Position numbers and translations under genes: made by a program. This document shows positions 6,421-30,800 of a stretch of 64,000 nucleotides of DNA, piece by piece. Below the pieces are notes generated by a model, which was given only the letters and a program-made list of their open reading frames with translations, was not told the origin of the DNA and ran no database searches. Location: NCBI GenBank assembly GCA_038087875.1, contig CM075990.1, positions 18,106,001 through 18,170,000 of the forward strand, read 5' to 3'. Within the stretch, counting starts at the first letter, position 1; each line of letters begins with the position of its first letter. The stretch comes from Malacoraja senta. Taxonomy: Eukaryota.

Positions 6421-6451
6421 AGTTGGTCTTAATGTATTTATATTAGTACAA

Positions 6452-7220: not shown

Positions 7221-8926
7221 CCATATAACATATAACAATTACAGCACGGAAACAGGCCATCTCGGCCCTTCAAGTCCATGCCAAACACTTTTTCTCCCCT
7301 AGTCCCATCTACCTGCACTCAGACCATAACCCTCCATTCCTTTCCCATCCATATACCCATCCAATCTATTTTTAAATGATAAAATCGAACCTGCCTCCAC
7401 CACTTCCACTGGAAGCTCATTCCACACAGCTACCACTCTCTTTGAGTAAAGAAGTTCCCCTAATGTTACCCCTAAACTTCTGTCCCTTAATTCTCAAGTC
7501 ATGTCCCCCTTGTTTGAATCTTCCCCACTCTCAATGGGAAAAGCTTATCCACGTCAACTCTGTCTATCCCTCTCATCATTTTAAAGATCTCTATCAAGTC
7601 CCCCCTTAACCTTCTGCGCTCCAAAGAATAAAGACCTAACTTGTTCAGCCTTTCTCTGTAATTTAGTTGCTGAAACCCAGGCAACATGCTCGTAAATCTC
7701 CTCTGTACTCTCTCTATTTTGTTGACATCCTTCCTATAATTAGGCAACCAAAATTGTACTCCATACTCCAGAATTGGCCTCACCAATGCCTTGTACAATT
7801 TTAAAATTACATCCCAACTTCTATACTCAATGCTCTGATTTATAAAGGCCAGCACACCAAAAGCTTTCTTTACCACCCTATCTACATGAGATTCCACCTT
7901 CAGGGAACTATGCACAGTTATTCCTAGATCCCTCTGTTCAACTGCATTCCTCAATTCGCTACCATTTACCATGTACGTCATATTTTGATTTGTCCTGCCA
8001 AGATGTAGCACCTCACATTTATCAGCATTAAACTCCATCTGCCATCTTTCAGCCCACTCTTCCAAATGGCCTAAATCTCTCTGTAGACTTTGAAAATCTA
8101 CTTCATTATCCACAACACCACCTATCTTAGTATCATCTGCATACTTACTAATCCAAATTTCCACACCATCATCCAGATCATTGATGTACATGACAAACAA
8201 CAGTGGACCCAACAGACCCCTGAGGCACCCCACGAGTCACCGGCCTCCAACCTGACAAACAGCCATCCACCATTACTCTCTGGCATCTCCCATTCAGCCA
8301 CTGTTGAATCCATCTTGCTACTCCACCATTAATACCCAACAATTGAATCTTCTTAACCAGCCTTCCATGTCAAAGACCTTGTCAAAGGCCTTACTGAAGT
8401 CCATATAGACAACATCCACTGCTTTACCCTCATCAATTTCCCTAATAACCTCTTTGAAAAATTCTAGAAGATTAGTCAAACATGACCTTCCAGGCACAAA
8501 TCCATGTTGACTGTTCTTAATCAGACCCTGTTTATCCAGATGCTTATATATATTATCCCTAAGTATCCTTTCCATTAATTTGCCCACCACTGACGTCAAA
8601 GTAACAGGTCTATAATTGCTAGGTTTACTCTTAGAACCCTTTTTAAACAATGGAACAACATGCGCAGTACGCCAATCCTCCGGCACTATTCCAGTTTCTA
8701 ATGACATTTGAAATATTTCTGTCATAGCCCCTGCTATTTCTACACTAACTTCCCTCAATGTCCTAGGGAATATCCTGTCGGGACCTGGAGACTTATCCGT
8801 TTTCATATTTTTCAAAAGTGTCCACACCTCCTCTTCTTTGAATCTCATAGTTTCCATCGCTACTCTGCTTGTTTCCCTTACCTCGCATAATTCCATATCG
8901 TTCTCCTTGGTGAATACCGAAGAAAA
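7221..8926 (-). mobile_element. 5'-truncated CR1 LINE (HER1-like), frameshifted RT
   Basis: ORFs 8318-9004 (NYRPVTL, QHGF, YMDFSKAFD) and 7499-8233 (LGPLLF..YINDL, YADD); (TGTTATA)n-like tail at 7221-7240. Confidence 0.92.
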
Positions 8927-11900
8927 TGGAGTTACAGGGATGTGGTCACTCCAACACCACAGGAGGCAGGCAAGTGGATCACGGTTGGGAGAGGCAAGGG
9001 GCACAGGCAGGGACTAGAGAGTACCCCGGTGGCTGTACACCTTGACAGCAAGTACTCCTGTTTGAGCACTGTTGGGGTGGACAGCCTACCTGGGGGTAGT
9101 GACAGCGGCCGGGCCTCCGGTATAGAGACCGGCCCTGTTGCTCAGAAGGGCAAGGAAAAGAAGAGGAGGGCAATACTAATAGGGGACTCTATAGTTGGGG
9201 GGTCAGACAGGCGATTCTGTGGACGCAGTCGGGAGACCCGGATGGTAGTTTGCCTCCCTGGTGCCAGGGTCTGTGATGTGTCTCAACGTGTCCAAGATAT
9301 CCTGAAAGGGCAGGGAGAGGAGCCCGAGGTCATGGTACATATAGGTACCAATGACATAGGTAAAAAAAGAGAAGAGGTCCTGATAGGAGAATTTAGGGCG
9401 TTAGGAGGGGAGTTAAAGAGAAGGACAGCAAAGGTAACAATCTCGGGATTACTGCTTGTGCCATGGAGGATAAATGCGTGGCTGAAGGACTGGTGCAGAA
9501 GGCAGGGATTCAAATTTCTGGATCATTGGGACCTCTTTTGTGGAAGGTTCGACCTGTACAAAAAGGATGGTTTGCACTTGAACCTGAGGGGGACCGATAT
9601 CCTGGCGGGGAGATCTGCAAAGGCTACTGGGGAGACTTTAAACTAGAATGGTTGGGGGGAGGGACTCAAATAGAGAATGCTATTAGACAGTGTGTGAGGC
9701 AGGAGGCAGAGAAGGAAAGCACTCAGACCCAACATGTAGGGGGGAAAGAAGAAAACAACAATAAACAGAGAATAAGAGGTGGTGGGGTTCTTAAATGGGT
9801 GAGCAGAGAAACAGAGGGGTGTAAAATGCGGGCGGAAGCAATAGGTAGCAAGGTGAAAAGTAAACGTGGCAGGCAGACAAATCCAGGGCAAAAATCAAAA
9901 AGAGCCACTTTTCAACATAATTGTATAAGGGGTAAGAGCGTTGTAAAAACAAGCCTGAAGGTTTTGTGTCTCAATGCAAGGAGCATTCGTAATAAGGTGG
10001 ATGAGTTGAACATGCAGATAGCAATTAATGATTATGATATAGTTGGGATCACGGAGACATGGCTCCAGGGTGACCAAGGCTGGGAGCTGAACATCCAGGG
10101 ATATTCAATATTCAGGAGGGATAGAGAGAAAGGAAAAGGAGGTGGGGTAGCGTTGCTGGTTAGAGAGGAGATTAACGCAGTGGAAAGGAAGGACATTAGC
10201 TTGGAGGATGTGGAATCGGTATGGGTAGAGCTGCGAAACACTAAGGGGCAGAAAACGCTGGTGGGTGTTGTGTACAGGCCACCTAGCAGTACTAGTGAAG
10301 TTGGGGATGGCATCAAACAGGAAATTAGAAATGCGTGCAACAAAGGCAAAACAGTTATAATGGGTGACTTCAATCTACATATAGATTGGGTGAATCAAAT
10401 TGGCAGGGGTGCTGAGGAAGAGGATTTCTTGGAATGTATGCGGGATAGTTATCTAAACCAACATGTAGAGGAACCAACGAGAGAGCAGGCTATTCTAGAC
10501 TGGGTATTGAGTAATGAGGAAGGGTTAGTTAGCAGTCTTGTTGTGCGTGCCCCCTTGGGCAAGAGTGACCATAATATGGTTGAGTTCTTCATTAGGATGG
10601 AGAGTGACATTGTTAATTCAGAAACAACGGTTCTGAACTTAAAGAAAGGAAACTTTGAGGGTATGAGACGTGAATTGGCCAAGATTGACTGGCAATTAGT
10701 TCTAAAAGGGTTGACGGTGGATATGCAATGGAAGGCATTTAAAGACTGCATGGATGAACTACAAAAATTGTTCATCCCAGTTTGGCAAAAGAATAAATCC
10801 GGGAAGGTAGTGCATCCGTGGATAACAAGGGAAATCAGGGATAGTATCAAAGCAAAAGATGATGCATACAAATTAGCCAGAAAAAGCAGCATACCAGAGG
10901 ACTGGGAGAAATTCAGAGACCAACAGAGGAGGACAAAGGGCTTAATTAGGAAAGGGAAAATAGATTATGAAAGGAAACTGGCAGGGAACATAAAAAACTG
11001 ACTGCAAAGGTTTTTATAGATATGTGAAGAGAAAGAGATTAGTTAAAACAAATGTAGGTCCCTTGCAGTCAGAAACAGGTGAATTGATCATGGGGAACAA
11101 GGATATGGCGGACCCATTGAATAACTACTTTGGTTCCGTCTTCACTAAGGAAGACATAAATAATCTGCCGGAAATAGCAGGGGGCCGCGGGTCAAAGGAG
11201 ATGGAGGAACTGAGTGAAATCCAGGTTAGTCGGGAAGTGGTGTTGGGTAAATTGAATGGATTAAAGGCCGATAAATCACCAGGGCCAGAGGCTGCATCCC
11301 AGAGTACTTAAGGAAGTAGCTCCAGAAATAGTGGATGCATTAGTGATAATTTTTCAAAACTCCTTAGATTCTGGAGTAGTTCCTGAGGATTGGAGGGTAG
11401 CAAACGTACCACATTTTGACAAGGTACCACATAAGAGATTAGGATACAAACTTAAATCACACAGTATTGGGGGTTCAGTATTGATGTGGATAGAGAACTG
11501 GCTGGCAAACAGGAAGCAAAGAGTAGGAGTAAACGGGTCCTTTTCACAATGGCAGGCAGTGACTAGTGGGGTACCGCAAGGCTCAGTGCTGGGACCCCAG
11601 CTATTTACAATTTATATTAATGATCTGGACGAGGGAATTGAAAGCAACATCTCCAAGTTTGCGGATGACACTAAGCTGGGGGGCAGTGTTAGCTGTGAGG
11701 AGGATGCTAGGAGACTGCAAGGTGACTTTGATAGGCTGGGTGAGTGGGCAAATGTTTGGCAGATGCAGTATAATGTGGATAAATGTGAGGTTATCCACTT
11801 TGGTGGCGAAAACGGGAAGGCAGACTATTATCTAAATGGTGGCCGATTAGGAAATGGGGAGGTGCAGCGAGACCTGGGTGTCATGGTACACCAGTCATTG

Positions 11901-12592
11901 AAAGTAGGCATGCAGGTGCAGCAGGCAGTGAAGAAAGCGAATGGTATGTTGGCCTTCATAGCAAGAGGATTTGAGTATAGGAGCAGGGAGGTTCTACTGC
12001 AGTTGTACAGGGTCTTGGTGAGACCACACCTGGAGTATTGCGTACAGTTTTGGTCTCCAAATCTGAGGAAGGACATTATAGCCATAGAGGGAGTGCAGAG
12101 AAGGTTCACCAGACTGATTCCTGGGATGTCAGGACTTTCATATGAAGAAAGACTGGATAGACTTGGCTTATACTCGCTAGAATTTAGGAGATTGAGAGGG
12201 GATCTTATAGAAACGTACAAAATTCTTATGGGGTTGGACAGGCTAGATGCAGGAAGATTGTTCCCGATGTTGGGGAAGTCCAGGACAAGGGGTCACAGCT
12301 TAAGGATAAGGGGGAAATCCTTTAAGACCGAGATGAGGAAAAACGTTTTCACACAGAGTGGTGAATCTCTGGAACTCTCTGCCACAGAGGGTAGTTGACG
12401 CCAGTTCATTGGCTATATTTAAGAGGGAGTTAGATGTGGCCCTTGTGGCTAAAGGGATCGGGGGGTATGGAGAGAAGGCAGGTACGGGATACTGAGTTGG
12501 ATGATCAGCCATGATCATATTGAATGGCGGTGCAGACTCGAAGGGCCGAATGGCCTACTCCTGCACCTATTTTCTATCTATCTATCTATCTA
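8927..12592 (+). mobile_element. Composite CR1 LINE: ORF1 part (8927-9797) plus ORF2 and 3'UTR of a second subfamily, (TCTA)n tail; ORF2 frameshifted in unit 1
   Basis: SGNH ORF1, APE motifs (LNARSI, ETW, YRPP, GDFN, SDH), RT motifs (GVPQGSVLGP, FADD), tail tctatctatctatcta. Confidence 0.92.
8942..9646 (+). pseudogene. 5'-truncated CR1 ORF1 SGNH/GDSL esterase domain
   Basis: LIGDSIV, CLPGAR, HIGTND and DGLHLN blocks typical of the CR1 ORF1 esterase. Confidence 0.85.
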
Positions 12593-12960
12593 ATTCTATC
12601 ACCCTGAAGCAACGAAATCCTGGAATATTTAGTTTCCAATCACAGCCATCCTGCAACCATGTTTCACTGATCGCCACAACATCATACTTCCCGGTGTCAA
12701 TCCAGGCTCTAAGCTCATCCACCTTTCTTACAATGCTCCTAGCATTTAAATATACACATTTAAGAAACCCACCACCTCTTATTCTCTGTTTATTATCTTT
12801 TTCTTCTTTGTCCCCTACATGTTGGGTCCGAGTGCTTCCCTTCTCTGCCTCCTGCCTCGCACCCTGACTACTAGCTTTCCCTATTCGAGTCCCTCCCCCC
12901 AACCGTTCTAGTTTAAAGTCTCCCCAGTTGCCTTTGCAAATCTCCCCGCCAGGATATTGG
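12593..12960 (-). mobile_element. Inverted CR1 fragment spanning ORF1 end / ORF2 start (copies ~28076-28443, 43537-43904, 61310-61677)
   Basis: ORF 12582-12902 (-): KQRIRGGGFLKCVYLNARSIVRKVDEL..SETWL; reverse complement closely matches 9596-9797. Confidence 0.88.
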
Positions 12961-12973
12961 CGTTGAACGTTAC

Positions 12974-13060
12974 GGGGTCTGAATGATGATCTCGTCCCAA
13001 AATGTCACCTGTTCCTTCTCACCAGAGATGCTGCCTGACCCGCTGAGTTACTCCAGCTCG
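12974..13060 (+). repeat. Penelope-like-derived short repeat with a decayed hammerhead-like motif
   Basis: ggggt-ctgaatga-tgatctcgtccc-aaaat-gtc-acc followed by agagatgctgcctgacccgctgagttactccagc. Confidence 0.6.
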
Positions 13061-13721
13061 TTGTCTCACCATACATTTGGGTGCATCTACATTGTTACTA
13101 TCCATTTCTTCAGTACTCTCGGTTATACTCTCATCCTTGGCTCTGCTCTTGGCCTTTCCACCCTGACTTGACAATTTTTGACTGAAAATCTGGGGGGTTG
13201 AGTTTTTCCAGGTATTTTTAACCAACTGGACACCATTAAATGTTTGTTTATATAGAACGTTTCAATGTCCACGTGTAGAGTACTGCATCAGGCAACAAGG
13301 TTGGGAGAACACTTGTGAAATTTAATGTGTATTTGATGGGGTAACTGGGGTGTTGATGTGCTTGTCAATTGCAAGTCAGTGCTGGAGCAACTCGATGGGT
13401 CCAGCAATGTCACTGGAGAATATGGATTGGTAATTCTGGGTTGGGACTCTTCAGACCCTTAAGAATTTTAGTCTAAATATATTCGACTACCTTAATATTG
13501 GTCCAACCTGTAGGAGTCCTGACTGCAGAGACACAATGGTCCTGGTTGGAGATACATCTCCAGGCATTGTCCACATGTCCAAGTGTTGTTACCTTGAGGA
13601 CTAGAATCTTCCCACCCAGGACTGTCTGACCCACTGAGTTACTCCAGCACTTTGTCTAATTGTAGAGAAGGACGTTGGAACATTTCAAACAGTAAAATGT
13701 TATGTTAATTTGATTTTTCAG

Positions 13722-13765
13722 CATCAAGTCTTCCTGGATTTGGTCATTCTGGAAGTCATAGGAAG
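13722..13765 (+). other. 44-nt exon-like cassette (intact copies also 17828-17871, 20804-20847 and equivalents in other units)
   Basis: ttgatttttcag|catcaag...ggaag|gtaagg: pyrimidine tract, AG acceptor and strong donor. No transcript evidence. Confidence 0.4.
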
Positions 13766-13844
13766 GTAAGGTACCTATTTCTAACTCTCTTCAGTTCAAT
13801 GGGATAAATGTGTTAAATTATTGATGGCTTTTCAAAATTTGTTT

Positions 13845-14140
13845 CTTCAACATCGAGGAGCTTGAAGTCTCTGGTAGAGACCGATGTCGGGAAGTTCCAA
13901 AGAACGCAAAAGGTTCAACTAGACCCCAAGTGAGCTGGGATTCAACCCCCCGATGCAGGACCCCCGACACGGACGGCCTGACCGCCGGCTATGGGAGTCG
14001 AGATCGTGCGTCAACGGAAGGCTCGAGGCCCCAGACCGCGGGAGACCAAAGAAGGGAAGAGTTTGAAATTTGTGTTCTGTTGCTTTTTATTGGTATGAGT
14101 GGATGGTAAATGAAATTCCTCGAGTTGCAAACATACTTTT
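13845..14140 (+). repeat. CpG-rich unclassified interspersed-repeat-like segment in each 1.8-kb module
   Basis: GC/CpG-rich island with an AT-rich end (ttctgttgctttttattggtatga...gttgcaaacatact); absent from the older modules before 6.2 kb, so probably an insertion. Family not identified. Confidence 0.4.
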
Positions 14141-14181
14141 TTTGCAACACGAGCCACCCCATGCTTGAATCGTGAGTAAAT

Positions 14182-14913
14182 ACACAGTGTTGGAGGAACT
14201 TGGTGGGTTTGACAACCTCTGAAGAAATGGACAGATGACTCATTGGGTCAGGAGCTCTCAGTCTGAAATATGGGGGAGAGCTGGAAATGAGGTGGGGGTT
14301 GGGCACTGCCTGACAGGTGATGGGTGGATTACAGGTGAGTGGGTGATGGGCAAATGGATGGAATAAGTGCCAAAGTCTGAAGGTGGAAGTGATGAAACAT
14401 GTTGGATAAGGACAAGAACTGTGAAATGTAAAACCAGGGTGAGGTGGAGTTGGAAGGTAAAAGGGAAATATGGGACAGTTGAGAGATGAGCACACTTACC
14501 TTCATTAACTAAGTAATAACTAAATAGTAATAACTAAATAGTAATAACTAAATAGTAATAACTAAATAGTAATAACAACTAACTAGTCCTTTCTTGTACG
14601 CTCATTTCTCAAACAGTTCCATATTCCCTCTATCCATTCCACCCATCTCTCTCCTAGTTTCATATTTCCGTTCTCTGCTTATTTGGCATTTTGTCCCTTT
14701 CACCTTGAGCCTTTGGCACTCACTCCATCCATATGCTAATCACGCCTCACATGTACCACCTATTTACTTGCTGGCTTTGTCCTGCATGCCTCTGCATCTT
14801 TTCACTCTCTCATCAGTCTTTGGAAGGTTGCTGACCTGAGATGTCATCTGTCCATTCCACTTGCAGTTAGGCAGATTGTGCCTGTACTGCTGAATGCCTC
14901 CAGCACTTTGTCT
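14182..14913. repeat. Fold-back: ~315-bp inverted arms around a (TAATAACTAAATAG)n-type loop (also ~15974-16708, 18287-19015, 20074-20738 and all unit copies)
   Basis: gggaaatatgggacagttgagagatgagcaca is the reverse complement of tgtacgctcatttctcaaacagttccatattccc; tgccaaag/ctttggca, aatggacagatgac/gtcatctgtccatt and agtgttggagg/cctccagcact pair in nested order. Confidence 0.85.
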
Positions 14914-17239
14914 TTGGACAGAGCCATGTTCCCTGGTTGTAGTTGGCTCCTGTTACAGGGAAAATAGAGTTTAATATTTTTGACTGGAGCTCTGTGGGAT
15001 TGGGTTTTTCCAGGTATTTTTAACCATCTGGACACCACTGAATGTTTGTTTATATCTAATATCTAACGTTTAAATGTCCACGTGAGGAGTAAGGCATCGG
15101 GCAACAAGGTTGGGAGAACACTTGTGAAATATAATGGGTATTTGATGTAACTGGGGTGTTGCTGTGCTTGTAAATTGTGTCAGTGCTGGAGCAACTCGAT
15201 GGGTACAGCAACATCGCTGGGGAACATGGATTGGTAATTCTGGGTAGGGACTCTTCAGACCTTAATCTCTTGAGCTAGTCTAAATATATTCGACTACATT
15301 AATATTGGTCCAACCTGTAGGAGTCCTGACTGCAGAGACACAATGGTCCTAGTTGGAGATACATCTCCAGGCATTGTCCACATGTCCAAGTGCTTTTACC
15401 TTGAGGACTAGAATCTTCTCACCCAGGACTGTCCGACCCACTGAGTTACTCCCGCACTTTGTCTAATTGTAGAGAAGGATGTTGGAACATTTCAAACATT
15501 AAATTGTTATGTTAATTTGATTTTTCAGCATCGTCATCCTGGATTTGGTCTTTATGGATGTCATAGGAAGATATGGTACCTATATCTAACCCTCTTCAGT
15601 TTAATGGGGTAAATGTGTTAAATTATTGATGGCTTTTCCAAAATTGTTTCTTCAACATCGAGGAGCTCGCAGTCTCTGGTATAGACTGATGTCGGGAAGC
15701 TCCAAAGAATGCAAAAGGTTCGACTAGACCCCGAGTGAGCTGGGATTGAACTCCCCGATGCAGGACCCCCGACACGGACGGCCCGACCGCTGGCTACGGG
15801 AGTCAAGATCGTGCCGTCAACGGGAGGCTCGAGGCAGACCAAAGAAGGGAAGAGTTTGAACTTTGTGTTCTGTTGCATTTTATTGGTATGAGTGTATGGT
15901 AAATGAAATTCCTCGTGTTGCAAAGCATACTTTTTTTGCAACGAGCCACCCCATGCTTGAATCGTGAGTAAATACAGTGCTGGAAGAACTTGGTGGGTTT
16001 GACTACCTCTGAAAAATGGACAGGTGACTAATTGGGTCCGGAGCTCTCAGTCTGAAATACGGGGGAGAGATGGAAATGAGGTGGGGGTTGGGCACTGCCT
16101 GACAGGTGATGGGTGGATTACAGGTGAGTGGGTGATAGGCAAATGGATGGAGTAAAGGCTGGAGGTGGAAGTGATCAAACATGTTGGATAAGGACAAGAA
16201 CTCTGAAATGTGAACCAGGGTGAGGTGGGGTTGGTAGGTAAAAGTGAAATATGGGACAAGGAGTTGAGAGATGAGCGTACTTCCCTTCATTAACTAAGTA
16301 ATAACTAATTAATAATAACTAAATAATTATAACTAAGTAACAACTAAATAATAACAACTAAATAATAACAACTAACTAGCCCTTTCTTGTACGATCATCT
16401 CTCAAAAACAGTCCCATATTCCCTCTATCTCTTCCACCCATCTCTCTCCTAGTTTCATATTTCAGTTCTACTTATTTGGCATTTTGTCCCTTTCACCATG
16501 AGCCTTTGGCACTCACTCCATGCATATGCTAATCACACCTCACATGTACCATCTATTTACTTGCTGGCTTTGTCCTTCGTGCCTCTGCCTCTTTTCACTC
16601 TCGTTCATCAGTCTGAGGAAGGTTGCTGACCTGAGATGTCATCTGTCCATTCCACTTGCAGTCAGGCAGATTGTGCCTGTACTGCTGAATGCCTCCAGCA
16701 CTTTGTCTTTGGACAGAGCCATGTTCCCTGGTTGTAGTTGGCTCCTGTTACAGGGAAAGTAGAGTTTAATATTTTTGACTGAAGCTCTGGGGGGTTGGGT
16801 TTATCCAGGTATTTCTAACCATCTGGACACCACTGAATGTTTGTTTATATCTAATGTTTAAATGGCCACATGAAGAGTAAGGCATCGGGCAACACGGTTG
16901 TGAGGACACTTGTGAAATATAATGGGTATTTGATATAACTGGGGTGTTGCCGTGCTTGTAAATTGATCAGTGGTGGAGCAACTCGATGGGTACAGCAACA
17001 TCGCTGGAGAACATGGATTGGTAATTCTGGGTTGGGAATCTTCAGACCTTACTCTCTTGAGGTAGTCTAAATATATTCGACTACCATAATATTGGTCCAA
17101 CCTGTAGGAGTCCTGACTGCAGAGACACAATGGTCCTGGTTGGAGATACAACTCCAGGCATTGTCCAAGTGTTTTACCTTGAGGACTAGAATCTTCTCAC
17201 CCAGGACTGTCCTACGCACTGAGTGGGTCGGACAGTCCT

Positions 17240-17742
17240 TGTGATTGAGGCAGTGCAGCGTAGGTTCACGAGATTGATCCCTGGGATGGCGGGACTGTCA
17301 TATGAGGAAAGATTGAAAAGTCTAGGCTTGTATTCACTGGAGTTTAGAAGGATGAGGGGGGGGGGGGGGTCTTATAGAAACATATAAAATTATAAAAGGA
17401 CTGGACAAGCTAGATGCAAGAAAAATGTTCCCAATGTTAGGCGAGTCCAGAACCAGGGGCCGCAGTCTTAGAATAAAGGGGAGGTCATTTAAGACTGAGG
17501 TGAGAAAAAACGTTTTCACCCAGAGTTGTGAATTTATGGAATTCCCTGCCACAGAGGGCAGTGGAGGCCAAATCACTGGATGGATTTAAGAGAGAGTTGG
17601 ATAGAGCTCCACGGGCTAGTGGAGTCGAGGGATATGGGGAGAAGGCATGCAATGGTTATTGATAGGGGATGATCACAATGAATGGCGGTGCTGGCTCGAA
17701 GGGCCGAATGGCATCCTCGTGCACCTATTTTCTATGTTTCTA
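17240..17742 (+). mobile_element. 5'-truncated CR1 3' end inserted in one module (copies ~32723-33222, 48184-48684, 50496-50995)
   Basis: IEAVQRRFTRLIPG..LGLYSLEFRR region, 3'UTR and gcacctattttctatgtttcta tail; absent from sibling modules. Confidence 0.9.
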
Positions 17743-20700
17743 AGTTACTCCCACACTTTGTCTAATTGTAGAGAAGGAAGTTGGAACATTTCAAACATTA
17801 AAATGTTATGTTAATTTGATTTTTCAGCATCAAGTGTACCTGGATTTGGTCTTTATGGATGTCATAGGAAGGTAAGGCACATATTTCTAACTCTCTTCAG
17901 TTTAATGGAATAATTGTGTTACATTATTGATGGCTGTTCCAAATTTGTTTCTTCAACATCGAGCAGCTCGCAGTCTCTGGTAGAGACCGATGTCGGGAAG
18001 CTCCAAAGAACGCAAAAGGTTCGACTAGACCCCGAGTGAGCTGTGATTGAACCCCCCGATGCAGGACCCCCGACACGGACGGCCCGACTGCCGGCTACGG
18101 GAGTCAAGATTTTCCCGTCAACGGAAGACTCGAGGCCCCAGACTGCGGGAGACCAAAGAAGGGAAGAGTTTGAACTTTGTGTTCTGTTGCTTTTTATTGG
18201 TATGAGTGGATGGTAAATGAAATTCCTTGTGTTGCAAACATACATTTTTTGCAACACGTGCCACCCCATGCTTGAATCGTGAGTAAACAGTGCTGGAGGA
18301 ACTTGGTGGGTTTGACAACCTCTGAATAAACGGACAGATGACTCATCGGGTCGGGAGCTCTCAGTCTGAAATACAGGGGAGAGCTGGAAATGAGGTGGGG
18401 GTTGGGCACTGCCTGACAGGTGATGGGTGGATTACAGGTGAGTGGGTGATGGGCAAATGGGTGGAGTAAGTGCCAAAGTCTGAAGGTGGAAGTGATGAAA
18501 CATGTTGGATAAGGACAAGAACTCTGAAATGTGAACCAGGGTGAGGTGGGGTTGGTAGGTAAAAGTGAAATATGGGACAGTTGAGAGATGAGCGTACTTC
18601 CCTTCATTAACTAAGTAATAACTAATTAATAATAACTAAATAATTATAACTAAGTAACAACTAAATAATAACAACAACTAACTAGCCCTTTCTTGTACGA
18701 TCATCTCTCAGAAACAGTCCCATATTCCCTCTATCTCTTCCACCCATCTGTCTCCTAGTTTCACATTTCAGTTCTACTTATTTGGCATTTACTCCCTTTC
18801 ACCTTGAGCCTTTGGCACTGACTCCATCCATATGCTAATCACGGCTCGCATGTACCACCTATTAACTTGCTGGCTTTGTCCTGCGTGCCTCTGCCTCTTT
18901 TCACACTCTTTCATTAGGTCTGAGGAAGGTTGCTGACCTGAGATGTCATCTGTCCATTCCACTTGCAGTCAGGCAGATTGTGCCTGTACTGCTGAATGCC
19001 TCCAGCACTTTGTCTTTGGACAGAGCCATGTTCCTTGGTTGTAGTTGGCTCCTGTTGCAGGGAAAGTAGAGTTTAATATTTTTGACTGAAGCTCTGGAGC
19101 GTTGGGTTTTTCCAGGTATTTTTAACCATCTGGACACCACTGAATGTTTGTTTATCTAACGTTTAAATGTCCACGTGAGGAGTAAGGCATCGGGCAACAA
19201 GGTTGGGAGAACACTTGTGAAATATAATGGGTATTTGATGTAACTAGGGTGTTGCTGTGCTTGTAAATTGTGTCAGTGCTGGAGCAACTCGATGGGTACC
19301 GCAACATCGCTGAAGAACATGGATTGGTAATTCTGGGTTGGGACTCTTCAGACCTTAATCTCTTGAGCTAGTCTAAATATATTCGACTACATTAATATTG
19401 GTCCAACCTGTAGGAGTCCTGACTGCAGAGACACAATGGTCCTAGTTGGAGATACATCTCCAGGCATTGTCCACATGTCCAAGTATTTTTACCTTGAGGA
19501 CTAGAATCTTCTCACCCAGGACTGTCCGACCCACTGAGTTACTCCCGCACTTTGTCTAATTGTAGAGAAGGATGTTGGAACATTTCAAACATTAAAATGT
19601 TATGTTAATTTGATTTTTCAGCATCAAGTCATCCTGGATTTGGTCTTTATGGATGTCATAGGAAGATAAGGTACCTATATCTAACCCTCTTCAGTTTAAT
19701 GGGGTAAATGTGTTAAATTATTGATGGCTTTTCCAAATTTGTTTCTTAAACATCGAGGAGCTCGCAGTCTCTGGTATAGACTGATGTCGGGAAGCTCCAA
19801 AGAATGCAAAAGGTTCGACTAGACCCCGAGTGAGCTGGGATTGAACCCCCCGATGCAGGACCCCCGACATGGACGGCCCGACCGCTGGCTATGGGAGTCA
19901 AGGTCGTGCCGTCAATGGGAGGCTCGAGGCCTCAGACCAAAGAAGGGAAGAGTTTGAACTTTGTGTTCTGTTGCTTTTTATTGGTATGAGTGTATGGTAA
20001 ATGAAATTCCTCGTGTTGCAAAGCATACTTTTTTTGCAACACGAGCCACCCCATGCTTGAATCGTGAGTAAATACAGTGCTGGAAGAACTTGGTGGGTTT
20101 GACAACCTCTGAAAAATGGACAGGTGACTAATTGGGTCCGGAGCTCTCAGTCTGAAATACGGGGGAGAGATGGAAATGAGGTGGGGGTTGGGCACTGCCT
20201 GACAGGTGATGGGTGGATTACAGGTGAGTGGGTGATAGGCAAATGGATGGAGTAAAGGCTGGAGGTGGAAGTGATCAAACATGTTGGATAAGGACAAGAA
20301 CTCTGAAATGTGAACCAGGGTGAGGTGGGGTTGGTAGGTAAAAGTGAAATATGGGACAAGGAGTTGAGAGATGAGCGTACTTCCCTTCATTAACTAAGTA
20401 ATAACTAATTAATAATAACTAAATAATTATAACTAAGTAACAACTAAATAATAACAACTAAATAATAACAACTAACTAGCCCTTTCTTGTACGATCATCT
20501 CTCAGAAACAGTCCCATATTCCCTCTATCTCTTCCACCCATCTCTCGCCTAGTTTCATATTTCAGTTCTACTTATTTGGCATTTTGTCCCTTTCACCATG
20601 AGCCTTTGGCACTCACTCCATCCATATGCTAATCACACCTCGTGTACCATCTATTTACTTGCTAGCTTTGTCCTTCGTGCCTCTGCCTCTTTTCACTCTC

Positions 20701-22701
20701 GTTCATCAGTCTGAGGAAGGTTGCTGACCTGAGATGTCTAATTGTAGAGAAGGAAGTTGGAACATTTCAAACATTAAAATGTTATGTTAATTTGATTTTT
20801 CAGCATCAAGTGTACCTGGATTTGGTCTTTATGGATGTCATAGGAAGGTAAGGCACATATTTCTAACTCTCTTCAGTTTAATGGAATAATTGTGTTACAT
20901 TATTGATGGCTGTTCCAAATTTGTTTCTTCAACATCGAGCAGCTCGCAGTCTCTGGTAGAGACCGATGTCGGGAAGCTCCAAAGAACGCAAAAGGTTCGA
21001 CTAGACCCTGAGTGAGCTGTGATTGAACAGGTGATGGGTGGATACAGGTGAGTGGGTAATGGGCAGATGGGTGGAGTAAGTGACAAAGGCTGAAGGTGAA
21101 AGTGATAAAATATGTTGGATAAGGACAAGAACTGTGAAATGTAAAGCCATAGGGAGGTGGGTTGGGAAGGTAAAAGGGAAATGTGGGACAAGGAGATGGG
21201 AGATGAGTGTACTTCCCTTCACCCCCCAAACACCCTGGTGTGCTAATTGACTGACTAACTAACTAATTAACTCACTAATTAACTCACTAACTAACTAACC
21301 AACTAACACTGGTCCTTTCCCTTCCTCTGTACGCTCATCTCTCAAACAGGAAAGTTGCTGACCTGAGATGTCATCTGTCCATTCCACTTGCAGTCAGGCA
21401 GATTGTGCTTGAACTGCTGAATGCCTCCAGCACTTTGTCTTTAGACAGAGACATATTCCCTGGTTAATGTAATTGTAGTTGTCTCCTGTTACAGGGAAAG
21501 TAGTTTAATATTTGTGGTGTATTAATTTGACTGTTTTGTACATCTTTGTCAGCTCTTGGGATCTGGTCTTTCTGGCGATTACTGTAAGGTAAGGCCCCTG
21601 TTTCAAAACCTCTCTTGGGTTTCAGTGTTTGGGGGAAAGATTAGGCAGCACAGTGGTAGAGTTGCTGCCTCACAGCGCCAGAGACCTGGGTTCAATCCTG
21701 ACAACATGTGTTGTTTGTATGTTCTGCCTGTGACAATGTGGGTTTTCTCCAGGTGTTCTGGCTTCCAACACCAAAGACATTCAGATTTGCAGGTTAATTG
21801 GTTTTAGTAAACTGTCCCTAGTGTGTAGGATAGTGCTCGTGTACGGGGTGATTGCTGGATTGTGGTGACTTGGTGGACCAGAGGGCCTGTTTCCACACTT
21901 TAGTTGGTCTTAATGTATTTATATTAGTACAATGTGAAGAAGGGTCCTGTTCTGAAACGTCACCTATAAATGTTCTGCAGAGATGCTGCCTGACCAGCTG
22001 AGTTACTCCAGCACTCCATGAAACGTCACCTATAAATGTTCTCCAGAGATGCTGCCTGACCTGCTGAGTTACTCCAGCACTGTCTATTTTTTTGTAAACC
22101 AGCACCTGCAGTTCCTTGATTTTCATCCCAAATCTTCCCTGGTTTCAGGGCTTTTACAAACTTTGGCATCTGTACAATGGGTGAATTACAGGGAAAGGAA
22201 ACGGGTCACAGACCAATAAAGCACCATTTTGCAGTAAAGAGAACAATTATATCTAATTTGAGGACAGCAGTCCCAATGTGCAGTGAATTTGTACAACAGG
22301 TCGCTCCAATTTGTGGTCAACACTCCCACCGTGTGGTGATCCGCTGCACTGCAGGCCCATCCAGTTTGTGGTGAACACTCCCACCGTGTGGTGATCCGCT
22401 GCACTGCAGACCCATCCAGTTTGTGGTCAACACTCCCACCGTGTGGTGATCCGCTGCACTGCAGGTCCATGTGACGTGGACAAAGTACTAGTTTAACTCT
22501 GGTCAGGCAGCATCTCTGGAGAACGTAGACAGGAGTATCTTTTTGTCCACATTTACTGCATTGCACCGCATACCGCACAGTGAGGAATTTCTTTAGTCGG
22601 AGGGCGGTGAATCTGTAGAATTCACTGCTACAGAAGGCTGTAGAGGCTGTCGATGGATATTTTTAAATTGGAGATAGATTCTTGATTAGCAATGGCGTTA
22701 A

Positions 22702-24408
22702 CCATATAACATATAACAATTACAGCACGGAAACAGGCCATCTCGGCCCTTCAAGTCCATGCCAAACACTTTTTCTCCCCTAGTCCCATCTACCTGCACT
22801 CAGACCATAACCCTCCATTCCTTTCCCATCCATATACCCATCCAATCTATTTTTAAATGATAAAATCGAACCTGCCTCCACCACTTCCACTGGAAGCTCA
22901 TTCCACACAGCTACCACTCTCTTTGAGTAAAGAAGTTCCCCCTAATGTTACCCCTAAACTTCTGTCCCTTAATTCTCAAGTCATGTCCCCCTTGTTTGAA
23001 TCTTCCCCACTCTCAATGGGAAAAGCTTATCCACGTCAACTCTGTCTATCCCTCTCATCATTTTAAAGATCTCTATCAAGTCCCCCCTTAACCTTCTGCG
23101 CTCCAAAGAATAAAGACCTAACTTGTTCAGCCTTTCTCTGTAATTTAGTTGCTGAAACCCAGGCAACATGCTCGTAAATCTCCTCTGTACTCTCTCTATT
23201 TTGTTGACATCCTTCCTATAATTAGGCAACCAAAATTGTACTCCATACTCCAGAATTGGCCTCACCAATGCCTTGTACAATTTTAAAATTACATCCCAAC
23301 TTCTATACTCAATGCTCTGATTTATAAAGGCCAGCACACCAAAAGCTTTCTTTACCACCCTATCTACATGAGATTCCACCTTCAGGGAACTATGCACAGT
23401 TATTCCTAGATCCCTCTGTTCAACTGCATTCCTCAATTCGCTACCATTTACCATGTACGTCATATTTTGATTTGTCCTGCCAAGATGTAGCACCTCACAT
23501 TTATCAGCATTAAACTCCATCTGCCATCTTTCAGCCCACTCTTCCAAATGGCCTAAATCTCTCTGTAGACTTTGAAAATCTACTTCATTATCCACAACAC
23601 CACCTATCTTAGTATCATCTGCATACTTACTAATCCAAATTTCCACACCATCATCCAGATCATTGATGTACATGACAAACAACAGTGGACCCAACAGACC
23701 CCTGAGGCACCCCACGAGTCACCGGCCTCCAACCTGACAAACAGCCATCCACCATTACTCTCTGGCATCTCCCATTCAGCCACTGTTGAATCCATCTTGC
23801 TACTCCACCATTAATACCCAACAATTGAATCTTCTTAACCAGCCTTCCATGTCAAAGACCTTGTCAAAGGCCTTACTGAAGTCCATATAGACAACATCCA
23901 CTGCTTTACCCTCATCAATTTCCCTAATAACCTCTTTGAAAAATTCTAGAAGATTAGTCAAACATGACCTTCCAGGCACAAATCCATGTTGACTGTTCTT
24001 AATCAGACCCTGTTTATCCAGATGCTTATATATATTATCCCTAAGTATCCTTTCCATTAATTTGCCCACCACTGACGTCAAAGTAACAGGTCTATAATTG
24101 CTAGGTTTACTCTTAGAACCCTTTTTAAACAATGGAACAACATGCGCAGTACGCCAATCCTCCGGCACTATTCCAGTTTCTAATGACATTTGAAATATTT
24201 CTGTCATAGCCCCTGCTATTTCTACACTAACTTCCCTCAATGTCCTAGGGAATATCCTGTCGGGACCTGGAGACTTATCCGTTTTCATATTTTTCAAAAG
24301 TGTCCACACCTCCTCTTCTTTGAATCTCATAGTTTCCATCGCTACTCTGCTTGTTTCCCTTACCTCGCATAATTCCATATCGTTCTCCTTGGTGAATACC
24401 GAAGAAAA
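22702..24408 (-). mobile_element. CR1 LINE RT fragment, unit 2 copy
   Basis: Identical ORFs 22981-23715 and 23800-24486. Confidence 0.92.
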
Positions 24409-24423
24409 TGGAGTTACAGGGAT

Positions 24424-25128
24424 GTGGTCACTCCAACACCACAGGAGGCAGGCAAGTGGATCACGGTTGGGAGAGGCAAGGGGCACAGGCAGGGACTAGA
24501 GAGTACCCCGGTGGCTGTACACCTTGACAGTAAGTACTCCTGTTTGAGCACTGTTGGGGTGGACAGCCTACCTGGGGGTAGTGACAGCGGCCGGGCCTCC
24601 GGTATAGAGACCGGCCCTGTTGCTCAGAAGGGCAAGGAAAAGAAGAGGAGGGCAATACTAATAGGGGACTCTATAGTTGGGGGGTCAGACAGGCGATTCT
24701 GTGGACGCAGTCGGGAGACCCGGATGGTAGTTTGCCTCCCTGGTGCCAGGGTCTGTGATGTGTCTCAACGTGTCCAAGATATCCTGAAAGGGCAGGGAGA
24801 GGAGCCCGAGGTCATGGTACATATAGGTACCAATGACATAGGTAAAAAAAGAGAAGAGGTCCTGATAGGAGAATTTAGGGCGTTAGGAGGGGAGTTAAAG
24901 AGAAGGACAGCAAAGGTAACAATCTCGGGATTACTGCTTGTGCCATGGAGGATAAATGCGTGGCTGAAGGACTGGTGCAGAAGGCAGGGATTCAAATTTC
25001 TGGATCATTGGGACCTCTTTTGTGGAAGGTTCGACCTGTACAAAAAGGATGGTTTGCACTTGAACCTGAGGGGGACCGATATCCTGGCGGGGAGATCTGC
25101 AAAGGCTACTGGGGAGACTTTAAACTAG
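24424..25128 (+). pseudogene. CR1 ORF1 SGNH esterase fragment, unit 2
   Basis: Same translation as 8942-9646. Confidence 0.85.
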
Positions 25129-27881
25129 AATGGTTGGGGGGAGGGACTCAAATAGAGAATGCTATTAGACAGTGTGTGAGGCAGGAGGCAGAGAAGGAAA
25201 GCACTCAGACCCAACATGTAGGGGGGAAAGAAGAAAACAACAATAAACAGAGAATAAGAGGTGGTGGGGTTCTTAAATGGGTGAGCAGAGAAACAGAGGG
25301 GTGTAAAATGCGGGCGGAAGCAATAGGTAGCAAGGTGAAAAGTAAACGTGGCAGGCAGACAAATCCAGGGCAAAAATCAAAAAGAGCCACTTTTCAACAT
25401 AATTGTATAAGGGGTAAGAGCGTTGTAAAAACAAGCCTGAAGGTTTTGTGTCTCAATGCAAGGAGCATTCGTAATAAGGTGGATGAGTTGAACATGCAGA
25501 TAGCAATTAATGATTATGATATAGTTGGGCTCACGGAGACATGGCTCCAGGGTGACCAAGGCTGGGAGCTGAACATCCAGGGATATTCAATATTCAGGAG
25601 GGATAGAGAGAAAGGAAAAGGAGGTGGGGTAGCGTTGCTGGTTAGAGAGGAGATTAACGCAGTGGAAAGGAAGGACATTAGCTTGGAGGATGTGGAATCG
25701 GTATGGGTAGAGCTGCGAAACACTAAGGGGCAGAAAACGCTGGTGGGTGTTGTGTACAGGCCACCTAGCAGTACTAGTGAAGTTGGGGATGGCATCAAAC
25801 AGGAAATTAGAAATGCGTGCAACAAAGGCAAAACAGTTATAATGGGTGACTTCAATCTACATATAGATTGGGTGAATCAAATTGGCAGGGGTGCTGAGGA
25901 AGAGGATTTCTTGGAATGTATGCGGGATAGTTATCTAAACCAACATGTAGAGGAACCAACGAGAGAGCAGGCTATTCTAGACTGGGTATTGAGTAATGAG
26001 GAAGGGTTAGTTAGCAGTCTTGTTGTGCGTGCCCCCTTGGGCAAGAGTGACCATAATATGGTTGAGTTCTTCATTAGGATGGAGAGTGACATTGTTAATT
26101 CAGAAACAACGGTTCTGAACTTAAAGAAAGGAAACTTTGAGGGTATGAGACGTGAATTGGCCAAGATTGACTGGCAATTAGTTCTAAAAGGGTTGACGGT
26201 GGATATGCAATGGAAGGCATTTAAAGACTGCATGGATGAACTACAAAAATTGTTCATCCCAGTTTGGCAAAAGAATAAATCCGGGAAGGTAGTGCATCCG
26301 TGGATAACAAGGGAAATCAGGGATAGTATCAAAGCAAAAGATGATGCATACAAATTAGCCAGAAAAAGCAGCATACCAGAGGACTGGGAGAAATTCAGAG
26401 ACCAACAGAGGAGGACAAAGGGCTTAATTAGGAAAGGGAAAATAGATTATGAAAGGAAACTGGCAGGGAACATAAAAACTGACTGCAAAGGTTTTTATAG
26501 ATATGTGAAGAGAAAGAGATTAGTTAAAACAAATGTAGGTCCCTTGCAGTCAGAAACAGGTGAATTGATCATGGGGAACAAGGATATGGCGGACCCATTG
26601 AATAACTACTTTGGTTCCGTCTTCACTAAGGAAGACATAAATAATCTGCCGGAAATAGCAGGGGGCCGCGGGTCAAAGGAGATGGAGGAACTGAGTGAAA
26701 TCCAGGTTAGTCGGGAAGTGGTGTTGGGTAAATTGAATGGATTAAAGGCCGATAAATCACCAGGGCCAGATAGGCTGCATCCCAGAGTACTTAAGGAAGT
26801 AGCTCCAGAAATAGTGGATGCATTAGTGATAATTTTTCAAAACTCTTTAGATTCTGGAGTAGTTCCTGAGGATTGGAGGGTAGCAAACGTACCACATTTT
26901 GACAAGGTACCACATAAGAGATTAGGATACAAACTTAAATCACACAGTATTGGGGGTTCAGTATTGATGTGGATAGAGAACTGGCTGGCAAACAGGAAGC
27001 AAAGAGTAGGAGTAAACGGGTCCTTTTCACAATGGCAGGCAGTGACTAGTGGGGTACCGCAAGGCTCAGTGCTGGGACCCCAGCTATTTACAATTTATAT
27101 TAATGATCTGGACGAGGGAATTGAAAGCAACATCTCCAAGTTTGCGGATGACACTAAGCTGGGGGGCAGTGTTAGCTGTGAGGAGGATGCTAGGAGACTG
27201 CAAGGTGACTTTGATAGGCTGGGTGAGTGGGCAAATGTTTGGCAGATGCAGTATAATGTGGATAAATGTGAGGTTATCCACTTTGGTGGCGAAAACGGGA
27301 AGGCAGACTATTATCTAAATGGTGGCCGATTAGGAAATGGGGAGGTGCAGCGAGACCTGGGTGTCATGGTACACCAGTCATTGAAAGTAGGCATGCAGGT
27401 GCAGCAGGCAGTGAAGAAAGCGAATGGTATGTTGGCCTTCATAGCAAGAGGATTTGAGTATAGGAGCAGGGAGGTTCTACTGCAGTTGTACAGGGTCTTG
27501 GTGAGACCACACCTGGAGTATTGCGTACAGTTTTGGTCTCCAAATCTGAGGAAGGACATTATAGCCATAGAGGGAGTGCAGAGAAGGTTCACCAGACTGA
27601 TTCCTGGGATGTCAGGACTTTCATATGAAGAAAGACTGGATAGACTTGGCTTATACTCGCTAGAATTTAGGAGATTGAGAGGGGATCTTATAGAAACGTA
27701 CAAAATTCTTATGGGGTTGGACAGGCTAGATGCAGGAAGATTGTTCCCGATGTTGGGGAAGTCCAGGACAAGGGGTCACAGCTTAAGGATAAGGGGGAAA
27801 TCCTTTAAGACCGAGATGAGGAAAAACGTTTTCACACAGAGTGGTGAATCTCTGGAACTCTCTGCCACAGAGGGTAGTTGA
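24945..27881 (+). CDS. 978-aa CR1 ORF2-derived ORF: intact AP-endonuclease, RT with in-frame internal deletion, frameshifted C-terminus
   Basis: Open frame with all APE motifs; ...DWRVANVPHFDKVPH... lacks the LFKKG..NYRP..QHGF..YxDFxKA block. Start codon and expression uncertain. Confidence 0.6.
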   Translation: MEDKCVAEGLVQKAGIQISGSLGPLLWKVRPVQKGWFALEPEGDRYPGGEICKGYWGDFKLEWLGGGTQIENAIRQCVRQEAEKESTQTQHVGGKEENNNKQRIRGGGVLKWVSRETEGCKMRAEAIGSKVKSKRGRQTNPGQKSKRATFQHNCIRGKSVVKTSLKVLCLNARSIRNKVDELNMQIAINDYDIVGLTETWLQGDQGWELNIQGYSIFRRDREKGKGGGVALLVREEINAVERKDISLEDVESVWVELRNTKGQKTLVGVVYRPPSSTSEVGDGIKQEIRNACNKGKTVIMGDFNLHIDWVNQIGRGAEEEDFLECMRDSYLNQHVEEPTREQAILDWVLSNEEGLVSSLVVRAPLGKSDHNMVEFFIRMESDIVNSETTVLNLKKGNFEGMRRELAKIDWQLVLKGLTVDMQWKAFKDCMDELQKLFIPVWQKNKSGKVVHPWITREIRDSIKAKDDAYKLARKSSIPEDWEKFRDQQRRTKGLIRKGKIDYERKLAGNIKTDCKGFYRYVKRKRLVKTNVGPLQSETGELIMGNKDMADPLNNYFGSVFTKEDINNLPEIAGGRGSKEMEELSEIQVSREVVLGKLNGLKADKSPGPDRLHPRVLKEVAPEIVDALVIIFQNSLDSGVVPEDWRVANVPHFDKVPHKRLGYKLKSHSIGGSVLMWIENWLANRKQRVGVNGSFSQWQAVTSGVPQGSVLGPQLFTIYINDLDEGIESNISKFADDTKLGGSVSCEEDARRLQGDFDRLGEWANVWQMQYNVDKCEVIHFGGENGKADYYLNGGRLGNGEVQRDLGVMVHQSLKVGMQVQQAVKKANGMLAFIARGFEYRSREVLLQLYRVLVRPHLEYCVQFWSPNLRKDIIAIEGVQRRFTRLIPGMSGLSYEERLDRLGLYSLEFRRLRGDLIETYKILMGLDRLDAGRLFPMLGKSRTRGHSLRIRGKSFKTEMRKNVFTQSGESLELSATEGS

Positions 27882-30800
27882 CGCCAGTTCATTGGCTATA
27901 TTTAAGAGGGAGTTAGATGTGGCCCTTGTGGCTAAAGGGATCGGGGGGTATGGAGAGAAGGCAGGTACGGGATACTGAGTTGGATGATCAGCCATGATCA
28001 TATTGAATGGTGGTGCAGACTCGAAGGGCCGAATGGCCTACTCCTGCACCTATTTTCTATCTATCTATCTATCTAATTCTATCACCCTGAAGCAACGAAA
28101 TCCTGGAATATTTAGTTTCCAATCACAGCCATCCTGCAACCATGTTTCACTGATCGCCACAACATCATACTTCCCGGTGTCAATCCAGGCTCTAAGCTCA
28201 TCCACCTTTCTTACAATGCTCCTAGCATTTAAATATACACATTTAAGAAACCCACCACCTCTTATTCTCTGTTTATTATCTTTTTCTTCTTTGTCCCCTA
28301 CATGTTGGGTCCGAGTGCTTCCCTTCTCTGCCTCCTGCCTCGCACCCTGACTACTAGCTTTCCCTATTCGAGTCCCTCCCCCCAACCGTTCTAGTTTAAA
28401 GTCTCCCCAGTTGCCTTTGCAAATCTCCCCGCCAGGATATTGGCGTTGAACGTTACGGGGTCTGAATGATGATCTCGTCCCAAAATGTCACCTGTTCCTT
28501 CTCACCAGAGATGCTGCCTGACCCGCTGAGTTACTCCAGCTCGTTGTCTCACCATACATTTGGGTGCATCTACATTGTTACTATCCATTTCTTCAGTACT
28601 CTCGGTTATACTCTCATCCTTGGCTCTGCTCTTGGCCTTTCCACCCTGACTTGACAATTTTTGACTGAAAATCTGGGGGGTTGAGTTTTTCCAGGTATTT
28701 TTAACCAACTGGACACCATTAAATGTTTGTTTATATAGAACGTTTCAATGTCCACGTGTAGAGTACTGCATCAGGCAACAAGGTTGGGAGAACACTTGTG
28801 AAATTTAATGTGTATTTGATGGGGTAACTGGGGTGTTGATGTGCTTGTCAATTGCAAGTCAGTGCTGGAGCAACTCGATGGGTCCAGCAATGTCACTGGA
28901 GAATATGGATTGGTAATTCTGGGTTGGGACTCTTCAGACCCTTAAGAATTTTAGTCTAAATATATTCGACTACCTTAATATTGGTCCAACCTGTAGGAGT
29001 CCTGACTGCAGAGACACAATGGTCCTGGTTGGAGATACATCTCCAGGCATTGTCCACATGTCCAAGTGTTGTTACCTTGAGGACTAGAATCTTCCCACCC
29101 AGGACTGTCTGACCCACTGAGTTACTCCAGCACTTTGTCTAATTGTAGAGAAGGACGTTGGAACATTTCAAACAGTAAAATGTTATGTTAATTTGATTTT
29201 TCAGCATCAAGTCTTCCTGGATTTGGTCATTCTGGAAGTCATAGGAAGGTAAGGTACCTATTTCTAACTCTCTTCAGTTCAATGGGATAAATGTGTTAAA
29301 TTATTGATGGCTTTTCAAAATTTGTTTCTTCAACATCGAGGAGCTTGAAGTCTCTGGTAGAGACCGATGTCGGGAAGTTCCAAAGAACGCAAAAGGTTCA
29401 ACTAGACCCCAAGTGAGCTGGGATTCAACCCCCCGATGCAGGACCCCCGACACGGACGGCCTGACCGCCGGCTATGGGAGTCGAGATCGTGCGTCAACGG
29501 AAGGCTCGAGGCCCCAGACCGCGGGAGACCAAAGAAGGGAAGAGTTTGAAATTTGTGTTCTGTTGCTTTTTATTGGTATGAGTGGATGGTAAATGAAATT
29601 CCTCGAGTTGCAAACATACTTTTTTTGCAACACGAGCCACCCCATGCTTGAATCGTGAGTAAATACACAGTGTTGGAGGAACTTGGTGGGTTTGACAACC
29701 TCTGAAGAAATGGACAGATGACTCATTGGGTCAGGAGCTCTCAGTCTGAAATATGGGGGAGAGCTGGAAATGAGGTGGGGGTTGGGCACTGCCTGACAGG
29801 TGATGGGTGGATTACAGGTGAGTGGGTGATGGGCAAATGGATGGAATAAGTGCCAAAGTCTGAAGGTGGAAGTGATGAAACATGTTGGATAAGGACAAGA
29901 ACTGTGAAATGTAAAACCAGGGTGAGGTGGAGTTGGAAGGTAAAAGGGAAATATGGGACAGTTGAGAGATGAGCACACTTACCTTCATTAACTAAGTAAT
30001 AACTAAATAGTAATAACTAAATAGTAATAACTAAATAGTAATAACTAAATAGTAATAACAACTAACTAGTCCTTTCTTGTACGCTCATTTCTCAAACAGT
30101 TCCATATTCCCTCTATCCATTCCACCCATCTCTCTCCTAGTTTCATATTTCCGTTCTCTGCTTATTTGGCATTTTGTCCCTTTCACCTTGAGCCTTTGGC
30201 ACTCACTCCATCCATATGCTAATCACGCCTCACATGTACCACCTATTTACTTGCTGGCTTTGTCCTGCATGCCTCTGCATCTTTTCACTCTCTCATCAGT
30301 CTTTGGAAGGTTGCTGACCTGAGATGTCATCTGTCCATTCCACTTGCAGTTAGGCAGATTGTGCCTGTACTGCTGAATGCCTCCAGCACTTTGTCTTTGG
30401 ACAGAGCCATGTTCCCTGGTTGTAGTTGGCTCCTGTTACAGGGAAAATAGAGTTTAATATTTTTGACTGGAGCTCTGTGGGATTGGGTTTTTCCAGGTAT
30501 TTTTAACCATCTGGACACCACTGAATGTTTGTTTATATCTAATATCTAACGTTTAAATGTCCACGTGAGGAGTAAGGCATCGGGCAACAAGGTTGGGAGA
30601 ACACTTGTGAAATATAATGGGTATTTGATGTAACTGGGGTGTTGCTGTGCTTGTAAATTGTGTCAGTGCTGGAGCAACTCGATGGGTACAGCAACATCGC
30701 TGGGGAACATGGATTGGTAATTCTGGGTAGGGACTCTTCAGACCTTAATCTCTTGAGCTAGTCTAAATATATTCGACTACATTAATATTGGTCCAACCTG

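Follow-up and report, generated by a model that had tools for sequence, protein, structure and literature searches.

A nested skate macrosatellite that may have grown from a once-spliced fragment, with fold-back hairpins as probable passengers

A 64,000-nt stretch of contig CM075990.1 of Malacoraja senta (the window; all coordinates are positions within it) carries head-to-tail copies of a module composed of an exon-like cassette, a CpG-rich insert and a long fold-back. We think it probable, if well short of certain, that this array is a methylated, nested macrosatellite that grew from a once-spliced fragment and carries its hairpins as passengers. One inverted insertion of a Penelope-type repeat into an ancestral exon-intron unit, as suggested by arm homology and a shared flank, would have been followed by unequal crossing-over and deletions that amplified a piece of a + strand non-coding transcript, as the layers of sequence identity suggest; the hairpin would most likely have been a passenger of this amplification. 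The result would be a methylated, largely unconstrained repeat, transcribed at most weakly, an outcome consistent with CpG decay, dead hammerhead cores and loss of the splice donor in two of the four module types. A preliminary description of the array had proposed a source of small interfering RNAs of endogenous origin (endo-siRNAs) or PIWI-interacting RNAs (piRNAs), or equally neutral satellite turnover; the latter fits at least as well.

Tandem architecture and spread of the module family

Self-alignment recovered all three tiers named in the preliminary description: the module array, a 4.1-kb dimer and a 15.5-kb macrosatellite. The largest unit occurs four times (5546-21026, 21027-36506, 36507-54279 and, in part, 54280-64000) with 99.2-99.99% identity in colinear parts, and every copy contains four modules, M1 to M4, of 1.3-1.8 kb, together with fragments. 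Full modules are 89-95% identical to one another, and the modules and partial modules of unit 1 share 86-92% identity with M1. The dimer pairs 13634-16640 with 17740-20738 (offset 4106, 95% identity), and module-related sequence makes up 28,022 of the 64,000 bases. Duplication layers at about 60-77%, 89-95% and >99% identity, comprising the old copies and the 1.8-kb, 4.1-kb and 15.5-kb repeats, bear out the several rounds of duplication that had been proposed. The third large unit is a 17.8-kb variant whose extra 2.3 kb is likely the product of an unequal crossover; the additional block lies at 47715-50992, where the CR1-interrupted module is duplicated, giving a hybrid module at 48682-50026. 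Unit 1 and its modules are as follows.

5546-21026, no strand assigned: 15.48-kb higher-order unit 1 (self-alignment)
13174-14975, + strand: young module M1, 1802 bp (module alignment; joint 14990 to 13189 in run X1)
14976-16770, + strand: young module M2, with a dead donor and 2 nt deleted from the cassette (module alignment)
16771-17224, + strand: 5' module part, interrupted by a CR1 3' fragment (alignment)
17740-19077, + strand: young module M3 (3' part), donor intact (alignment)
19078-20738, + strand: young module M4, with a dead donor and a truncated right arm (alignment)
20735-21028, + strand: partial module, a cassette with intact donor, ending at the unit boundary, within the CpG insert (alignment)

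The stretch 13174-21700 is present in 23 listed public sequencing runs from 11 studies. Contigs of four of 24 listed runs were aligned to 12960-14990: X1 (DNA, organism A), X12 (DNA, organism F), and X19 and X23, whose RNA label is a guess and whose contigs carry no strand. Organisms B, C and D (share 0.20-0.24) and E, G and I (small shares) were left out and are not counted as support. Both DNA runs cover 30 of 30 bins. Mean summed contig depth over eight module-specific bins, a quantity that gives no copy number and cannot rank expression, is 24,000 in X1 and 34,000 in X12 (range of module bins 3,000-70,000), against 8 and 325, respectively, in the spacer just outside the module, and single module contigs of X12 at depth 1,100-3,250 stand beside contigs of 16-26. 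From this contrast between module and spacer, the family seems to number hundreds of copies or more and to predate the species of organisms A and F. A joint in X1 steps back from 14990 to 13189, exactly 1802 nt, placing modules head to tail in organism A. Homologous modules in related genomes, on which the preliminary description had made its proposal depend, are seen in the DNA of these two other organisms. As a separate observation, an X12 contig spans the junction upstream of M1 (13027-13235), which would therefore be older than the split from organism F; organism F has M1-type alleles at low depth, and organism A, in which several M1 alleles are all missing, is probably not the source of the window.

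Head-to-tail units of kilobase length, which characterise macrosatellites, are thus found as 15.5-kb units, as 1.8-kb modules and in the 1802-nt back joint of X1. In the available text of PMC5687341, D4Z4, DXZ4, NBL2/SST1 and RS447 are likewise head-to-tail kilobase units of complex repeat-derived sequence, several known macrosatellites giving low-level non-coding RNAs, both long and small; the skate array differs from these in its nested 1.8/4.1/15.5-kb hierarchy, its lower G+C (45%), a 740-nt fold-back per module and no open reading frame (ORF) found.

The fold-back and its Penelope-type ends

Folding confirmed the fold-back of about 730 bp described for M1. Positions 14182-14913 reach a minimum free energy of -324.7 kcal/mol (z -18.6, 20 shuffles), and z remains at -16.5 under separate shuffling of the two arms, so that the fold-back is not an effect of purine/pyrimidine composition. 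Its arms are 58-63% identical, 76% of bases are paired and the longest Watson-Crick run is 11-14 bp, with local pairing reaching 31-33 of 35 nt. The truncated fold-back of M4 still gives z -6.9. Older relatives lie upstream of the young array.

14178-14915, + strand: M1 fold-back, with left arm, A+T-rich tandem loop (about 14496-14590) and right arm with a dead hammerhead-like core (folding, arm alignment)
15970-16710, 18285-19013 and 20070-20738, + strand: fold-back homologues (alignment)
3616-4389, + strand: old complete fold-back (z -8.2 for 3618-4382)
5399-5962, + strand: old partial fold-back, inner right arm deleted (z -4.8 for 5402-5958; only about 130 nt of the outer arms align)
866-1190, + strand: old lone right arm, no fold-back (z +1.1; a second partial arm at 1424-1545)

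Three old fold-backs had been reported, of which 3618-4382 is complete, 5402-5958 is partial and 865-1190 proved to be a lone arm. Across the window we count 11 complete and three truncated young fold-backs, plus one complete and four partial of the old type, and the figure of about 20 long hairpins given earlier is reached only if partial copies are included. The right flank is common to all five aligned fold-backs or arms, old and young, and to seven of seven flanks in a separate comparison. This sharing points to a single insertion that was copied along with the module, and the hairpin likely traces to one old inverted insertion.

The outer ~100 nt of each arm match dispersed short repeats of the window at 69-72%. 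The following copies lie in or beside M1.

12977-13066, + strand: dispersed short repeat copy just upstream of M1 (depth 16-22 million; loose-end consensus with hammerhead core)
13374-13456, - strand: decayed copy of the dispersed short repeat (alignment)
13608-13657, + strand: dispersed short repeat, 3' tail (summed DNA-run depth above 1 million)

In X1 and X12 this repeat attains a summed depth of 16-22 million and shows thousands of loose ends, whose consensus contains CTGAAGA, a single extra base, a G-C-closed stem II, GAAA and a palindromic CG. The minimal type I hammerheads of Penelope-like elements have an extra base after position 9, G10.1-C11.1 and a palindromic 15.2-16.2 (PMC4209133, available text), and the consensus of the dispersed repeat has these features. 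Penelope-like insertions often form inverted repeats, according to the available part of PMC8557442, and the inverted copies at both ends of the fold-back fit such a direct/inverted arrangement of pseudo-long terminal repeats (pLTRs). We therefore infer that the dispersed repeat is a Penelope-type element. The module resembles the pLTR relics of these two sources in the minimal type I core of the dispersed family's consensus and in the two inverted copies that frame the fold-back, and differs from them in that the window has no ORF combining reverse transcriptase (RT) and GIY-YIG domains, the cores are dead and the copies were multiplied by tandem duplication instead of transposition. A motif scan of 1-21700 found six cores, all defective; within modules, GAAA has become GAGA in M2-M4 and CUGA is lost in M1. 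DNA depth over the inner arms (250 nt) is comparable in magnitude to that of module-specific bins, which indicates that few dispersed copies still match the inner arms at 80%. Palindromic elements of this kind are common in skate genomes. Many joints of the dispersed repeat connect tandem or inverted copy pairs, and it is very abundant in DNA and RNA-like runs alike; matched against metagenome contigs and viral contigs, it gave no matches.

A tandem array with hammerhead-derived sequence tied to Penelope pLTRs recalls the non-LTR retrozymes (PMC7229834; bioRxiv 10.64898/2026.07.22.740005; available text of both), which the latter source describes as tandem derivatives of Penelope pLTRs and reports from a chondrichthyan. 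We nevertheless regard it as extremely unlikely that the module is a mobile retrozyme-like element spreading through hammerhead-cut RNA monomers. Its 1.8-kb monomer is much longer than the 51-972 bp reported in the available text of that preprint, which takes a complete hammerhead in at least two consecutive units as its criterion; an intact core occurs in no module, and the junctions resemble deletions and unequal exchange.

The cassette, the CpG-rich insert and signs of transcription

Upstream of the fold-back in M1 lies a short piece bounded by an acceptor-like AG and a consensus splice donor, with homologues in young and old copies.

13722-13765, + strand: M1 exon-like cassette, measuring 44 nt if counted from the first AG and 37 nt if from the AG at 13727-13728 (GT of the donor at 13766)
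15529-15570, 17828-17871, 19622-19665 and 20804-20847, + strand: young cassette homologues (alignment)
2941-2992, + strand: old cassette homologue that keeps its donor and has lost the homologous acceptor AG (alignment)
4850-4891, + strand: old cassette (37 nt) with donor (alignment)
6072-6112, + strand: old cassette (36 nt) with donor, copied in each 15.5-kb unit (alignment)

Alignment found the old donor cassettes reported to end at 2987, 4886 and 6107. The claim that every module carries an AG..GTAAGG cassette stands for 11 of 17 young cassettes, in which the GT donor is intact; it fails for M2- and M4-type cassettes, which have AT in place of GT (donor lost in 6/17), probably by a single common change. 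When four old lineages are compared, no other invariant stretch is as long as the 8-nt donor motif (46 of 160 columns are invariant; P 0.003 in a column shuffle, a test chosen post hoc), a degree of conservation that argues for selection on splicing, at least earlier, and for an ancestor that was probably a spliced + strand non-coding transcript. The spliced non-coding transcript of the preliminary description is plausible for the ancestor, on account of the conserved donor and, weakly, of RNA-like contigs; young donors are dead in 6/17. Among M1-M4 the cassette diverges by 0.074, as fast as its surroundings (0.03-0.09 elsewhere in the module). Further AG..GT-bounded short pieces loosely resemble the cassette (1811-1855, 4608-4651, about 1970-2000, 13187-13212 and the flank 14925-14967); for 1811-1855, 4608-4651 and the right flank the alignment is loose (48% mean column identity) and homology only putative, and the unit may at first have been a shorter repeat of exon and intron. 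A consensus splice donor also occurs within the left fold-back arm on the + strand, at 14333-14339 and homologues.

The CpG-rich insert follows the cassette.

13866-14160 (approximate ends), no strand assigned: CpG-rich insert (CpG observed/expected 0.89, window value 0.34; peaks of depth at 13844-13911 and 14048-14115)

This composition agrees with the insert as originally described, which is likely a fragment of another dispersed repeat. Transitions affect 13 of 40 CpG sites in the insert and 6 of 116 other C/G sites (about sixfold faster), and 9 of 29 against 29 of 349 in the fold-back (about fourfold), rates that are somewhat inflated for CpG by counting as a site any CpG present in any copy. 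Such fast CpG decay is the pattern expected of germline-methylated DNA, and the module DNA is probably methylated in the germline.

One frame of the cassette gives similar hydrophobic peptides, of an L-D-L-V-F type, in old and young copies; it is open for 42 codons in M3, with the same stretch in M1, and its replacements are conservative. It is still very unlikely, in our view, that the cassette is a relic or live short protein-coding exon of a tandem-exon gene, given a stop in one old copy, another phase in a second and a frameshift in M2. Codon-level constraint was not detected (codon-position test P 0.48, with a script that set the 3-nt gap of one old copy off-frame; BLOSUM test P 0.055, best of three frames), and no protein relatives of the frame were found among longer proteins. 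A single phmmer match was discarded as an artefact, consisting of eight 5.4-bit matches in a tandem-repeat ORF.

Several observations weigh against a passive satellite, and most of them would be expected of a functional repeated-exon non-coding host gene, whose + strand transcript would splice the cassettes while intronic hairpins are diced to endo-siRNAs, or which would serve as a piRNA cluster directed at Penelope-type and CR1 repeats. The conserved donor motif is one. RNA-like contigs from two studies, at depths of about 4-20, are present in 28 (X19) and 17 (X23) of 30 bins and cross module-specific junctions. Two X19 contigs are confined to about 13727-13762 and one X23 contig departs after 13763 with 38 unaligned letters, where DNA contigs continue. 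Differences between the arms on the + strand are G-U-compatible rather than A-C at 29:18 in the old fold-back and 31:17 in M1, neither significant alone, and substitutions that break a pair amount to 25 of 57, where simulation gives a mean of 29.7 (P 0.053, 206 matched simulations). To these are added the strong local pairing, and an outline like that of C19MC and the tandem hp-CG4068 loci (available text of PMC2691840 and PMC10317233). Repeats can persist without function, yet a function would be compatible with a large family lasting across species. A different kind of difficulty is that no Penelope ORF was found, the 11 window ORFs scanned giving only CR1-type domains, so that assignment to the Penelope class rests on motif and arrangement.

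We consider the host gene possible but doubtful. The longest of the RNA-like contigs continue unspliced through the module and past the predicted acceptor, and since the contig ends beside the donor (13762-13763) fall 2-3 nt short of the cut site, with their loose letters unread, they are only a weak hint of splicing. No splice joint was found among the 15 joints listed (223 others lie outside the listing). Helices of at most 14 bp, dead donors and CpG decay also speak against it. No pre-miRNA-like hairpin was found in 66 local windows, the best being a stem of 13 bp where the insert ends, and an Rfam scan of 1-22500 (E up to 1) returned one chance match, outside the array. Scaled to the short-repeat bin, module bins of RNA-like runs stand about 50-200-fold below those of DNA runs; this ratio is not counted as evidence, nor are the gaps in cover (13776-13843 in X19, 13 of 30 bins in X23). 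Were the host-gene reading true, the array would supply a vertebrate germline with small RNAs from long hairpins.

Selection on the hairpin is borderline. A first maintenance test gave P 0.006 and was biased because the structure had been derived from the majority sequence; the matched simulation gave the value of 0.053 quoted above. Pair-keeping substitutions are not in excess (12 against 13.2 simulated), and the minus strand shows 27 pair breaks, similar to the 25 on the + strand. Polarised substitutions among M1-M4 are without strand asymmetry (C>T 15 and G>A 14; A>G 8 and T>C 7). An H/ACA small nucleolar RNA in the flank right of the fold-back was considered and rejected, as six of six copies fold with z -1.1 to +0.2. 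No transfer RNA was found in the window.

Related loci, significance and neighbouring sequence

C19MC shares with the array a repeated short exon, interspersed-repeat debris and a hairpin per unit, with some exon copies unused; it has 46 pre-miRNA hairpins and proven spliced ladders (PMC2691840, available text), in contrast to a decayed 740-nt inverted repeat and putative splicing here. The Drosophila hp-CG4068 loci likewise consist of tandem long imperfect fold-backs with copy number in flux, and hairpin RNAs (hpRNAs) are defined there by Dicer-2-dependent siRNAs from capped, often spliced transcripts (PMC10317233, available text), whereas such processing of the skate hairpins is hypothetical. 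A bolder version of the host-gene reading would make the family a skate-wide repeated-exon non-coding gene of hundreds of copies, its introns releasing 740-nt domesticated inverted Penelope-type hairpins whose siRNAs or piRNAs act against the most abundant repeat of the genome. This we hold to be unlikely; if true, it would be a vertebrate counterpart of the Drosophila tandem hairpin-RNA loci. We know of no hpRNA pathway described in cartilaginous fish.

Taken as a nested macrosatellite, the array is of value as a record of how a gene-like fragment and transposon debris grew into such a structure, and the module points to a hyper-abundant minimal-hammerhead repeat in skate genomes. No description of the module family, or of a dispersed minimal-hammerhead repeat in skates, was found in the literature searched, whose coverage left most subscription papers outside, and the available text of PMC11406177 and bioRxiv 2025.06.08.657570 does not describe the module repeat; this complex repeat family of skates is apparently hitherto undescribed.

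Long interspersed nuclear elements (LINEs) of CR1 type flank and interrupt the modules.

7499-9013, - strand: antisense CR1-type LINE fragment with RT pieces (domain scan)
8891-12584, + strand: sense, broken CR1-type LINE with GDSL esterase ORF1, endonuclease and RT (domain scan)
17244-17742, + strand: CR1-type LINE 3' fragment (76% identity to 12084-12584)

The closest named matches of the RT of the LINE at 8891-12584 are Leucoraja erinacea proteins (89-91% in the best two), which marks the window as that of a skate-like cartilaginous fish. A 37-nt inverted match at 17203-17243 indicates that, ahead of the CR1 3' fragment, its target site recurs in short inverted form. The oldest module remnants are directly preceded on their upstream side by a C-rich minisatellite of 39 bp in 15 copies (236-822). 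Pieces of another interspersed repeat, putatively like a short interspersed nuclear element, occur at about 2100-2270, 5068-5340 and 6167-6418, one with an internal 39-bp tandem expansion (5107-5308).

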